Origin: Promethearchaeota archaeon
GTDB lineage: Archaea > Asgardarchaeota > Lokiarchaeia > Sigyniarchaeales > SOKP01
NCBI GenBank assembly: GCA_048940925.1
Contig: JBHLOC010000045.1
Coordinates: 1-37,154, forward strand
DNA: 37,154 nt
Reading direction: 5' to 3'
The notes under the pieces were generated by a model. That model made no database searches, was not told where the DNA came from, and was given only the letters and a program-made list of their open reading frames with translations. Numbering within the stretch: the first letter of the stretch is position 1; each line of letters starts with the position of its first letter. This document shows positions 369 to 5,115 of this stretch, piece after piece. A program made the translations under genes and the position numbers.

Positions 369-881
369 ATGTATAAAAAAATTTTACTAGCTACAGATGG
401 TTCAGACCATATAGATCGAGCTGCTTCAATTGTGATTGGATTTTATAAAAAGTGGGGTTGTGAGATTAGAATATTTCACTCTATCAAACATACATTGGAA
501 AAAGTCGAGCGTCCTACTCTTAGGCTATATTTACCTTATTCTGATAGTGGTTATTTAGATTTACCTTCCTCTCCTCCGGTTTACAGTGGTAATTTGAACC
601 CAAATAACCAATTGCGTGAATTTGAAGTTGAAAAAATAGGTAGAAATATTTTAGATGAAAAGAAAGCTATATTTGAAGAATTACATATACCTGTTAAAAC
701 TAAGTTAGTTGTTAAGGAAGATCCTGAATATTATATAATAAGATTAGTAAAAAAAAAGAACTTCGATTTGGTCGTAGTCGGATATAAGGGAATTCATTCT
801 AAATTAAGTCAACTATTTTTAGGATCAGTCGCACAATATGTTGTAGAACACTCTCCCTGTGATGTATTAGTTATACGATAA
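369..881 (+). CDS. Universal stress protein (UspA family)
   Basis: MYKKILLATDGS N-terminus; DLVVVGYKG...LGSVAQYVVEHSPCDVLVIR C-terminal motif. Confidence 0.95.
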   Translation: MYKKILLATDGSDHIDRAASIVIGFYKKWGCEIRIFHSIKHTLEKVERPTLRLYLPYSDSGYLDLPSSPPVYSGNLNPNNQLREFEVEKIGRNILDEKKAIFEELHIPVKTKLVVKEDPEYYIIRLVKKKNFDLVVVGYKGIHSKLSQLFLGSVAQYVVEHSPCDVLVIR

Positions 882-890
882 GAAAAATTA

Positions 891-1280
891 TTAGTTTTTA
901 TTTTCCTCTAATAATTCTTGAATTTTTTTCAATAGTTCTTTACCAGAAAATGGTTTTGTAATATATGCATCAGCACCTAACTTCTTTCCTTTTTGAACAT
1001 CCTCATTAAAGCTTTTAACTGTAAATAAAACAACTAGAATATCTCTATATCTCTCATTGTTTTTGATTTCTTCCAAAACAGAATAACCAGAACGTCCGGG
1101 CATCATTATATCTAAAAGGATTAAAGCAATTTTCTCGTGATTTTCTTCAACCATCTTCATGGCTTCTTTCGCATTATTACTTGTGATTGTCTCAAAATCT
1201 CCCAATCTCAGAAACTTCTCGGTGAGATTGACAATATCAGGTTCATCGTCAACTATGAGAATTGTATTTTTACCAGACAT
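891..1280 (-). CDS. Single-domain response regulator (CheY-like receiver)
   Basis: ILIVDDE, LLDIMMP (phospho-Asp), GADAYITKPF. ATG at 1280 preferred over TTG at 1286. Confidence 0.95.
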   Translation of the reverse strand: MSGKNTILIVDDEPDIVNLTEKFLRLGDFETITSNNAKEAMKMVEENHEKIALILLDIMMPGRSGYSVLEEIKNNERYRDILVVLFTVKSFNEDVQKGKKLGADAYITKPFSGKELLKKIQELLEENKN

Positions 1281-1394
1281 ACGCAAATCCTAAACACAAT
1301 TTTTTGTCTTAATTAAGACTAAATTAATTTAACTATATTATATTGAATTATGCATTTATATAAATGACCTTATTTTTTTCATTTGTGATAGACA

Positions 1395-2063
1395 TTGGTA
1401 AGAAAAAATAGACTTCCGAAATTCCCAGATGATTATATAAGAGATAAAGCTAAAGAATATGATAGTTCAAGTTGGATGGAGCGTAATCAAAAAAAAGCAA
1501 CCTTATTAAGTATACAATATCTTTACGATGAAAAATTGAGTGGAAAAGAGAACAATGTAATAAATGTAGGAGATTCTCATCTTATTTTAGATTTAGGGTG
1601 TGGTACGGGATTCTCCTCAGGAATTTTAATAGAGAATGGTTTTAGGGTAATTGGAATAGATGTATTGAGAGATATGTTGTTTAAGGCAAGAGAAAAAAAA
1701 AATATTTTTAAAATTTATAAAAAATTAGAGCTAATATTAGCAGATATCAATTTTTTACCTATAAAAGATGCTTCGATTGATCATATCATTTCAATTTCTT
1801 CTTATAATTTCATAACATATGGAAAAGACAACTATGGTGAAAAAGTTAAACTTCTAAATAATACAGCGAAATATTTGAATAAAATTTTGAAAAAAAGAGG
1901 AAGAATTATTATTGAATTTTACCCTAAGGATGATAGGGAATTGAAGATTTTTAAAAATTCATTTATTATGCATGGATTTGAAGGTTATATGGTAAAAAGT
2001 AAACCTTCTCAAAAATCAGGTCAAACTTTTTTATTATTAAAAAAAAAAAGTTTCAAAATATGA
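1395..2063 (+). CDS. Class I SAM methyltransferase, Bud23/WBSCR22-like (putative SSU rRNA m7G methyltransferase)
   Basis: ILDLGCGTGFS motif I plus Bud23-type motifs: N-terminal P..Y...A..Y..S....Q.K.TL, DHIISIS, EFYPKDD, GFEG..V..P..K...FLLL. TTG start. Confidence 0.8.
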   Translation: MVRKNRLPKFPDDYIRDKAKEYDSSSWMERNQKKATLLSIQYLYDEKLSGKENNVINVGDSHLILDLGCGTGFSSGILIENGFRVIGIDVLRDMLFKAREKKNIFKIYKKLELILADINFLPIKDASIDHIISISSYNFITYGKDNYGEKVKLLNNTAKYLNKILKKRGRIIIEFYPKDDRELKIFKNSFIMHGFEGYMVKSKPSQKSGQTFLLLKKKSFKI

Positions 2064-3187
2064 AAATGGGAACCTGTAAGTTCTGTGGTAAAGTCGATAA
2101 GAATATTTCTGAAGTATTGCAAATATGTAGAGATTGTATTTTAAACGGAGAATGGGACACCATTGAACCCCATATTTTCAAAGTTCATAAACAAGTTCGT
2201 CAACTTGTAGAGTTACCCGATAAACCTCCTAAAGCAGAACGACCAAATATTAAACTAAAATGCAATTACTGTATAAATGAATGTTCTCTTTCTGAAAATG
2301 ATGTAAGTTATTGTGGATTAAGAAATATCCAGAAGAAAAACTCAGGTGAATTACCGTTTCCTTCAAAATCAATGGGTTATATTCATGGCTATTTAGATCC
2401 AAATCCAACAAATTGTTGCAATGCGTGGTTCTGCCCCGCAGGGACTCCCGCAGGATATCCTGAATTTTCTGATTTTAAGGAACTGGAATATGGGACGTAT
2501 AACTATGCTGCTTTTCTATATGGATGTACATTTAATTGTTTATTCTGTCAGAATGCTTCACACAAAAATTTTTCAAAAAGAAATTTAGTTGATGTAGAAT
2601 CATTAGCAACTCAAATTATAGAAAATAAGAAGATCACATGCTTATGTTATTTTGGAGGAACTCCCGAAGCACAATTACCCTTCTCAATCAATCTAGCTGA
2701 AAAAATTTTGAAAAAAAGAAAGGTAAGAATCTGTTGGGAATGGAATGGAAGTGGAAACCAAAATTTAGTTGAGAAGTGTATGGATATAGCAATTAAGTCA
2801 GGAGGCAACATCAAATTTGATTTAAAGACATTTAATGAAAAATTAAACTTAGCCCTATGCGGGGTTAGTAATAAGAGAACTCTTGAAAATTTTAAATTTT
2901 TAGCGGAGAAATATTTCGGAACTAGAGGGGAAGATATGCCAGAGATGAGTGCCTGTACGCTGATGGTTCCTGGATACACTACTTATGAAGAAGTTGAGTT
3001 GATAGCTAAATTTGTTAGTTCCATAAATAAAGAGATTCCTTTTAGTTTATTAATTTTTCATGGAGATTATCAAATGAGGGATCTAGGGATTACACCGCGT
3101 AAGCAAGCGTTAAAAAGTTTTGAAATAGCGAAAAAATATTTAAAAAATGTGAATTTAGGAAATAAATTCCTGTTAGGATTTTCTTAG
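2060..3187 (+). CDS. Radical SAM protein, PflA/COG1180-like, with N-terminal Cys-rich zinc-binding region
   Basis: CTFNCLFCQN (CxxxCxxC), GGTPE, FDLK; N-terminal CxxC...CxxC. ATGA overlap with the upstream methyltransferase. Confidence 0.9.
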   Translation: MKMGTCKFCGKVDKNISEVLQICRDCILNGEWDTIEPHIFKVHKQVRQLVELPDKPPKAERPNIKLKCNYCINECSLSENDVSYCGLRNIQKKNSGELPFPSKSMGYIHGYLDPNPTNCCNAWFCPAGTPAGYPEFSDFKELEYGTYNYAAFLYGCTFNCLFCQNASHKNFSKRNLVDVESLATQIIENKKITCLCYFGGTPEAQLPFSINLAEKILKKRKVRICWEWNGSGNQNLVEKCMDIAIKSGGNIKFDLKTFNEKLNLALCGVSNKRTLENFKFLAEKYFGTRGEDMPEMSACTLMVPGYTTYEEVELIAKFVSSINKEIPFSLLIFHGDYQMRDLGITPRKQALKSFEIAKKYLKNVNLGNKFLLGFS

Positions 3188-3258: not shown

Positions 3259-5115
3259 ATGAAAAAAAAATTGCTAATCTTTTTAATTTTAACTCTTAAT
3301 CTTAGTATTAGTCTAATAATGACGCGAAATTACTGTTTTGATTGTAAGCCTAATTACATTAGGAGTAAAATTGATGAGTTTACTTTAAACTTATCAGCTG
3401 AGCAAGATCTTTTTGAAGAATGGTATCGTACCTGGGATTCGGGCTATACTGATTACGTCTATGCAATCACATTAGACTCTTTAGAAAATATCTACATTGC
3501 AGGCAAAACCTCCACCGAAACTGGACAGCATTTAGTTATCATAAAATTTGATAAAAATGGCAATTACCAATGGAACCGCACCACTATTTTTGCTGCTGAA
3601 GCAAGAGCAATGGAAGTAGATTCGTCTGATAATATTTATATTGCTGCTACTTTTGCGTACACACCAGGAATTGTTTACTTAATAAAATATGATCCTTCTG
3701 GAGATTTGCAATGGAATAAGACATGGGATCCACCTAGCAGTGAACAACCTTTTGATATTGCCATAGACGCATTCAATAACATATATATAACAGGATATAG
3801 TCAAAGCAATCCAGGAAAATTACAGGATGTATTTTTAGTTAAATATAATAGCACTGGTGATCAGCAATGGGTTCGTACTTGGGGTGGAAATGCTGCAGAA
3901 GTGAGTTATGGTGTTGCAACTGATTCATCTGATGGTATATATCTTACAGGACTTACGGAAAGTTACGGAACGGGAGATATGGATATTTTTGTTATGAAAT
4001 ATAATAGTTCAGGCATGTTACAATGGAACTATACCGTAGGTACAGATACTCCTTACAATGAACGTGGTTTTGATATAGCTCTAGATTCTTTAGAAAATAT
4101 TTATGTTAAAGGAAATATGTATGGTGGTGATATTCTTTTTAAATTTGATCATTTTGGAATTTATCAATGGAATAAGACTTATGCAACATATACTACATAT
4201 TATCCGTGGAGTGATTTAGAAATAGATTCTTTAGGTAACTTTTTTATGACGGGAGATAGATGGTTAATGAAATGTAATAGCTCAGGTGATCTTCTTTGGA
4301 CTACTAATATACTTCATGTTAACCATCTCACTGACACAGCATTAGATTCTGATAATAACGTGTATATTTCAGGATATGGAAATAATGATGCATTATTAAT
4401 AAAATACAGCTCTAAACCTAAGATTATTATAGAATCACCTCAAATTGGGGATTTTTTTGGAAAAAATGCCCCAAATTTTAACCTTACAATTTATGAACCA
4501 AATGTAGATACTTCTTGGTATTCAGTAGATGGAGGAATTACTAATGACACATTTGAAGGTTCAATAGGGCAAATAGATCAAATGGAATGGGACAAGCTAG
4601 GACACGGAACTCACAATATTACGTTTTATGTGAACGATTCATATGGGAATGAAGGATTTTCTGAAATTGAAATTAATAAAGATATTAAACCTCCCAAAAT
4701 TTTGATTTATGAACCCACGCCAGATAGTATATATGGAGATATTCCGCCAAATTATTCTATATCTGCACTTGACCAATTTAAATATAATGATACTAATTAT
4801 AATCATTTAGACTTAGTATGGTACACAATAGATGGAGGTTTAACAAATATTACTATTACTCATCCTGATTTCTGGGTTGGTACCATTGATGCAGACGCTT
4901 GGTCTGACGCTCCATATGGTAATATTACTATCCGATTTTACGCTACTGATGATTTTGGTAATATTGGATTTACTGATGTGATTGTAGAAAAAAGAAGCGA
5001 AATTATCCCAAAAAAAGCTAAAACTCCAGCGATTATAGGATATAATTTAATTTTAATCACTGGTATAGTTTCTGTAATATCCGTAATTATAATAAGAAAT
5101 CGAAAAAGTAAATAA
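3259..5115 (+). CDS. Secreted/surface SBBP-repeat beta-propeller protein with two Ig-like domains and a C-terminal Loki-CTERM-like anchor
   Basis: Signal peptide; repeated 'DS..NIYI.G...KY.S.G..QWN.TW'; two 'WY..DGG.TN' repeats; C-terminal IIGYN + TM helix + basic tail. GGTGA SD. Confidence 0.88.
   Translation: MKKKLLIFLILTLNLSISLIMTRNYCFDCKPNYIRSKIDEFTLNLSAEQDLFEEWYRTWDSGYTDYVYAITLDSLENIYIAGKTSTETGQHLVIIKFDKNGNYQWNRTTIFAAEARAMEVDSSDNIYIAATFAYTPGIVYLIKYDPSGDLQWNKTWDPPSSEQPFDIAIDAFNNIYITGYSQSNPGKLQDVFLVKYNSTGDQQWVRTWGGNAAEVSYGVATDSSDGIYLTGLTESYGTGDMDIFVMKYNSSGMLQWNYTVGTDTPYNERGFDIALDSLENIYVKGNMYGGDILFKFDHFGIYQWNKTYATYTTYYPWSDLEIDSLGNFFMTGDRWLMKCNSSGDLLWTTNILHVNHLTDTALDSDNNVYISGYGNNDALLIKYSSKPKIIIESPQIGDFFGKNAPNFNLTIYEPNVDTSWYSVDGGITNDTFEGSIGQIDQMEWDKLGHGTHNITFYVNDSYGNEGFSEIEINKDIKPPKILIYEPTPDSIYGDIPPNYSISALDQFKYNDTNYNHLDLVWYTIDGGLTNITITHPDFWVGTIDADAWSDAPYGNITIRFYATDDFGNIGFTDVIVEKRSEIIPKKAKTPAIIGYNLILITGIVSVISVIIIRNRKSK

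Follow-up and report, generated by a model that had tools for sequence, protein, structure and literature searches.

The window, by which we mean the whole stretch of 37,154 nucleotides analysed here (contig C37 of a 4.8 Mb genome in 90 contigs), encodes a genuine relative of the methyltransferase Bud23, with a likeness that goes beyond chance similarity. We hold with moderate confidence that this gene is a Trm112-dependent Bud23 paralogue without the basic C-terminal tail, that it represents an old archaeal clade (clade A), and that its target has changed. Bud23-Trm112 of yeast and BUD23-TRMT112 of human are the 18S rRNA (guanine1575/1639-N7)-methyltransferase. A second copy in the same genome, belonging to clade B, is the more Bud23-like of the two, and the comparison between the copies carries much of the argument below. 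The features on which the analysis draws are collected in Table 1.

Table 1. Features of the window and of other loci considered in this study. Locations without a prefix are positions in the window.
Feature	Location	Strand	Description and basis
Universal stress protein family gene	369-881	+	Pfam Usp, E 2.8e-24; immediately precedes the response regulator gene in window order
Single-domain response regulator gene	891..1286	-	131 aa; Pfam Response_reg, E 1e-24; divergent from the methyltransferase gene
TATA-box-like element	1355..1364	+	about 31 nt 5' of the start codon; read from sequence
Clade A Bud23-family class I SAM methyltransferase gene	1395..2063	+	222 aa; TTG start, TGA stop
ELILAD, residues 112-117	1728..1745	+	strand beta-3, predicted beta-zipper edge; complex model; strand E112-115 in the AlphaFold2 model
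N138-F139 codons	1806..1811	+	just past strand beta-4 (motif IV); QW in other Bud23 relatives; column counts
E174 codon	1914..1916	+	end of strand beta-5 (EFYP); Q (QFYP) in other sampled Bud23 relatives
Radical SAM gene	2060..3187	+	375 aa, PFL-activase-like; Pfam Radical_SAM and Fer4_12
Gene of a 618-aa protein	3259-5115	+	
Trm112 homologue	L001:1081-1704	+	207 aa; contig C63
Trm112 homologue	L002:1072-1695	+	207 aa; contig C89
B-type Bud23-like gene	G000:C19:33520-34152 (= L015:2521-3156)	+ on L015	211 aa; profile searches
eS25-like gene	L015:2067-2369	-	100 aa; divergent from the B copy
Metagenome contig segment with a B-A pair	L145:2796-5885		

Window locus and family membership of its methyltransferase

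The methyltransferase gene overlaps the downstream radical SAM gene by 4 nt, the sequence ATGA holding both its stop codon and the ATG of the next gene. The TATA-box-like element TTTATATAAA is a putative archaeal promoter element of the methyltransferase gene. The radical SAM protein has a Cys-rich N-terminus with a CxxxCxxC motif and gave weak matches only against NCBIfam; searches of the protein atlas, the PDB and NCBIfam returned nothing more specific than a PFL-activase-like enzyme. Its family is common across several archaeal phyla, also where this methyltransferase is lacking. The 618-aa protein encoded farther downstream has an N-terminal signal-like segment, a C-terminal membrane anchor and many SGD.QWN..W repeats, and by its look would be a beta-propeller surface protein.

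Pfam and NCBIfam assigned generic or sub-threshold methyltransferase matches only to the window methyltransferase. A sequence search of PDB chains returned yeast and human Bud23 as the top four matches (E 4.9e-15 to 2e-11), and HMMER aligned window residues 46-215 with residues 33-198 of yeast Bud23, including ILDLGCGTGFSSGILIENG of the window protein against ILDIGCGSGLSGEILTQEG of the yeast protein. The motifs D..ISIS, LKK.G....FYPK.D and GF.G..V...P..K....L.L, which the original prediction had listed as Bud23-like, are present and are aligned by HMMER to yeast Bud23. The order LDxGCGxG, D..ISIS, FYPK and GF.G..V...P..K....L.L is collinear in the two proteins, which are about 26-27% identical over about 200 aligned columns. 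The N-terminal residues Y14, A19, Y22 and Q32 are common to the window clade and eukaryotic Bud23. Scored with an HMM of eukaryotic Bud23, built from 22 sequences picked by their YTGRKR tails, the window protein reached 120.5 bits and the best generic methyltransferase of the genome 49 bits.

The AlphaFold2 model of the window protein (mean pLDDT 88) has a Rossmann-like strand order. Searched with this model, Foldseek returned Bud23 for all of the best eight matches (E ~4e-17, TM 0.77/0.89, rmsd 2-3 Å), and the first non-Bud23 match followed at E ~1e-11 and TM ~0.55, an E-value gap of about 1e6. SAM-binding motif I (LDLGCGTG, residues 64-72) is intact, and this motif and the motif II acid D89 are invariant or nearly so over all clades. 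The window protein thus resembles yeast Bud23 and human BUD23 (WBSCR22) in its class I fold and its Bud23-type N-terminal helices. Unlike them, it has an 11-residue insert of low confidence past these helices, has NF where they have QW and E where they have Q, and ends without the basic C-terminal extension.

The lack of this basic tail had been foreseen from the sequence of the window: the Pfam domain WBS_methylT (PF12589) is absent from the window protein, and it is likewise absent from all archaeal Bud23-like forms examined. The tail is not strictly family-defining, because a tail-less Bud23 also occurs in a eukaryote, the microsporidian Vairimorpha necatrix, whose protein P0313, named BUD23, has 219 aa and no WBS_methylT tail.

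Second copy and history of the family

Among all ORFs of the genome, the eukaryotic Bud23 HMM picked the B copy first (159 bits), followed by the window gene (120 bits) and the next ORF (49 bits), so that the reciprocal best match sought for the window gene went to its paralogue. The B copy also scored higher against solved Bud23 (87 versus 59 bits) and matched the human and yeast structures over its full length at E ~1e-23, the next unrelated match being at 1.9e-8. The two copies are 34% identical to each other, and B keeps both QW and QFYP. From these comparisons, the B copy beside eS25 would be a likelier counterpart of Bud23 than the window gene.

The B copy and the single-copy Hel-type and f3-type forms belong to one family with the window gene, all being tail-less proteins of about 200-220 aa from one archaeal radiation, but QW and QFYP, both missing from the window gene, are retained in B and in the Hel-type. 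Fungal Bud23 and the Hel-type proteins share 42-43% identity along 95% of the Hel-type length. Double the usual length, the metagenomic protein P0127 (412 aa) is matched by the query in two stretches and scores 268 bits with the HMM of eukaryotic Bud23; either two Bud23-like domains may be fused in it, or a tandem pair may have been read through.

Phylogenetic analysis with IQ-TREE (97 rows, 200 columns, LG+C20 PMSF, eight generic methyltransferases as outgroup) placed the window protein inside a Bud23-like clade (88/84) and not with generic Methyltransf_11/25 enzymes. Within this clade the eukaryotes (99/91) and the archaeal forms (78/87) each grouped together, the latter with clade A, which contains the window gene and has a long stem (96/99), and clade B (89/98). 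Clade I, comprising the Hel-type and the small-genome forms, has a placement between A and B that the tree did not settle. The root is only moderately secure because the outgroup branches are long. What the original prediction had proposed, a candidate archaeal ancestor of Bud23, stands as far as the family and the position of its archaeal members as sisters of the eukaryotes are concerned, and gives way in that a second copy is more Bud23-like than the gene it was proposed for.

An AU test did not reject eukaryotes and clade A as one clade (delta lnL 2.1, p 0.47), and for the branching order of eukaryotes, A, B and clade I the tree would appear to hold no preference. Since the AU test keeps A as a possible sister of the eukaryotes, the lower similarity of A to Bud23 could reflect faster divergence and not an earlier split.

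In three genomes of family f2 (L032, L033, L034) the B gene is directly followed by the A gene. One metagenome contig (L145) has the order eS25 (reverse), B, A, one gene and uS10; on this contig the B-A pair lies among genes of small-subunit head proteins. Clade A is probably the product of a tandem duplication of B, as suggested by the order eS25, B, A, which persists in sister lineages. In family f1 the A copy would then have left its place at eS25 for one beside the response regulator gene, and in most f1 genera it would have settled 5' of the radical SAM gene, where co-expression is possible. We also considered a transfer from eukaryotes to archaea and regard it as unlikely, the archaeal forms being deep, diverse, tail-less and outside the eukaryotic clade (99/91); this judgement depends on a root that rests on long outgroup branches.

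Presumed acceptor pocket and predicted Trm112 partner

It is established for class I methyltransferases that the methyl group being transferred and its acceptor are bordered by two loops, which follow strand 4 (motif IV) and strand 5 (motif VI). Clade A differs from the rest of the family in both loops. Column counts were made on 89 Bud23-like rows, including 25 eukaryotic, 16 clade I and 23 clade B sequences. The dipeptide past strand 4 is QW in 100% of the eukaryotic, clade I and clade B rows and NF in 100% of the clade A rows, and the residue before FYP is Q in the eukaryotic, clade I and clade B rows and E in 92% of clade A. The pattern recurs in a larger sample, in which NF is present in 119 of 120 and E in 118 of 120 A-type proteins closely related to the window protein. 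The Hel-type proteins of that sample all have QW and Q (26/26; NF or E 0/26), as do nearly all long eukaryote-type proteins (QW 52/54, Q 54/54; NF or E 0/54). Hence E at the QFYP position occurs in none of the 80 Hel-type and eukaryote-type proteins.

Judged by the general roles of motifs IV and VI and by the model's secondary structure, N138, F139 and E174 presumably line the acceptor pocket. Because the two loops flank the SAM methyl group and the acceptor, these exchanges suggest that the target of the window enzyme has changed, and the window gene probably makes a mark other than that of Bud23. The methyl group would go to a different nucleotide, or a different atom, of rRNA or tRNA and not to N7 of the P-site guanine. 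More speculatively, the acidic residue that replaces Q would be suited to a reaction requiring deprotonation, which N7 methylation does not.

The usual archaeal Trm112 has 60-80 aa, and eukaryotic Trm112 has an inserted helical domain. The two Trm112-like ORFs of the genome are much longer and share 61% identity; in each, 20 residues at the N-terminus and 40 at the C-terminus match Trm112, with about 125 residues inserted. The insert lies between the halves of the zinc knuckle and is reminiscent of the helical domain of the eukaryotic protein. With 8.4% contamination in the bin, the second copy may be foreign to the genome. A profile of 21 long Trm112 proteins matched both halves of Archaeoglobus fulgidus Trm112 (E 4.8e-7) and human TRMT112 (E ~0.003), and a homologue of the long Trm112 was found in all 41 of the 41 genomes searched of the order.

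A complex model calculated from the clade A and Trm112 alignments scored 0.91 (median of three runs; best of three controls 0.08). Of 80 solved complexes 58 attained this mark, as did 2 of 110 mismatched pairs. Because Trm112-methyltransferase complexes have already been solved, the score is a sign of likeness and could have been learned from them. At least 90% of contacts are shared between the runs, and the partner pLDDT is at least 91. Contacts of lowest error join enzyme residues 112-117 to residues 166-173, the C-terminal strand, of Trm112. The model thus predicts a Trm112 interface on strand 3 of the enzyme, the feature whose lack would have spoken against the original prediction. The window enzyme would bind the 207-aa Trm112 by the canonical strand-3/strand-4 beta-zipper.

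Such a beta-zipper has been described for known Trm112 complexes (PMC5372719), and Hvo_0019-Trm112 and A. fulgidus Trm11-Trm112 are archaeal class I methyltransferases that engage Trm112 in this way (PMC6144793). Both were weaker Foldseek matches to the window protein (6f5z and 6zxw, E ~3e-11, TM ~0.57), and in both the Trm112 is short, about 60 aa, in contrast to the 207-aa Trm112 with its insert of about 125 aa in the window genome.

Distribution, genomic context and significance

A profile built from B-type and Hel-type proteins was run over 400 genomes of the phylum, with a cutoff of E 1e-20. Matches were found in 125 of 134 genomes of family f1, 13 of 14 of f2, all five of families f28 and f29, two of three of the class-level family f30, three of four of f3 (genomes of 1.3-1.4 Mb) and the single genome of f18. 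Families f22, f14 and f20 had none (0/22, 0/12 and 0/7), three further families together had one (1/89), and f5 gave weak borderline matches in 5 of 31 genomes. The clade A gene is conserved across a whole Loki-type Asgard family (f1). Relatives named in databases are from Promethearchaeota, Promethearchaeia, Loki_b31 and Helarchaeota, with one Micrarchaeota record, and among the 80 related loci listed all are labelled Asgard or "uncultured archaeon"; the names of the close relatives agree with an Asgard origin of the window. Among these records, the one protein labelled Micrarchaeota may represent a Bud23 relative outside Asgard archaea.

The window gene could also be the functional counterpart of Bud23 that makes m7G with Trm112 at the P-site guanine of 16S rRNA, a reading we consider unlikely. 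Bud23 is its best match in sequence and in fold, the model predicts a Trm112 interface, and the AU test allows clade A as sister of the eukaryotes. Some near-complete genomes, moreover, carry the A copy alone: among genomes rated 99-100% complete, G071 and G174 have only A, and G113, G030 and G008 have only B. Either copy is apparently losable, and because such genomes carry only one of the two, some functional overlap of A and B is possible. However, the B copy outscores the window gene in each comparison with Bud23, it keeps the QW and QFYP that are lost in 118-119 of 120 clade A members, and the conserved position beside eS25 belongs to B and not to A. The assembly's 90 contigs yielded no SSU (16S) rRNA gene.

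Quite doubtful, to our mind, is a broader scenario in which duplication of the Bud23 family dates back to Asgard archaea, clade A works with Trm112 (in most genera also with a coupled radical SAM enzyme) to make an undescribed mark on the Asgard ribosome or tRNA, and the eukaryotic factor might descend from A instead of the copy linked to eS25. Descent of eukaryotic Bud23 from clade A is conceivable because the tree allows A as the closest archaeal relative.

We give little credence to a third reading, in which the methyltransferase and the downstream radical SAM enzyme act on a non-ribosomal substrate (a peptide, cofactor or small molecule) and the likeness to Bud23 is a matter of ancestry. 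The overlapping stop and start codons are in keeping with such a partnership, as is the conservation of the gene pair in six genera: the radical SAM gene lies directly 3' of the A gene in g1, g3, g4, g5, g6 and g8. (The divergent response regulator gene, a conserved neighbour of its own, lies 5' of the A gene in g1, g2, g4, g5, g6 and g8.) The active site of Bud23 also resembles that of plant xanthosine methyltransferase (PMC5372719), which makes a shift to a small purine-like substrate conceivable. The pair is absent, however, from genus g2 and from family f2, where A lies beside B, and the predicted Trm112 partner points to the translation apparatus, as for known Trm112 partners. The functional link between A and the radical SAM protein is weak, since the pair is missing in g2 and the radical SAM family is widespread without a methyltransferase partner. 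A radical SAM gene near the basal clade A member L148 proved unrelated to that of the window. Finally, that the gene encodes a generic UbiE/Methyltransf_11-type enzyme acting on small molecules, as the generic or sub-threshold Pfam and NCBIfam matches and several UbiE-like database names might imply, is very improbable given the 70-bit gap to the generic methyltransferases of the genome on the Bud23 profile, the 88/84 separation of Bud23-like from generic enzymes in the tree and the Foldseek gap between Bud23 and the next match.

According to two papers by specialists, a review of 2017 and a study of 2018, archaea do lack Bud23, and their 16S rRNA carries no m7G at the corresponding position (PMC5372719, PMC6144793); the original prediction, too, called Bud23 generally regarded as eukaryotic. 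Our literature search found no paper linking Bud23 with Asgard archaea or Lokiarchaeota; the supplement of Birikmen et al. 2021 has BUD23 among the traced factors. The JGI pipeline already names many archaeal relatives 18S rRNA (guanine1575-N7)-methyltransferase. On the window gene this label is probably wrong in detail, because we take the gene to be a repurposed copy, and for the window the finding carries the caution that its gene is not the best Bud23 counterpart.

For the family as a whole, Bud23 relatives without the tail exist in Asgard archaea of the Loki-type, the Hel-type and a few further lineages, whose Trm112 is also unusually long. The Asgard Bud23 family is split into at least two paralogues whose presumed pockets differ. 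One eukaryotic factor of small-subunit maturation is thereby pushed back before eukaryogenesis, and concrete rRNA or tRNA marks are predicted for cultured Loki-type strains.
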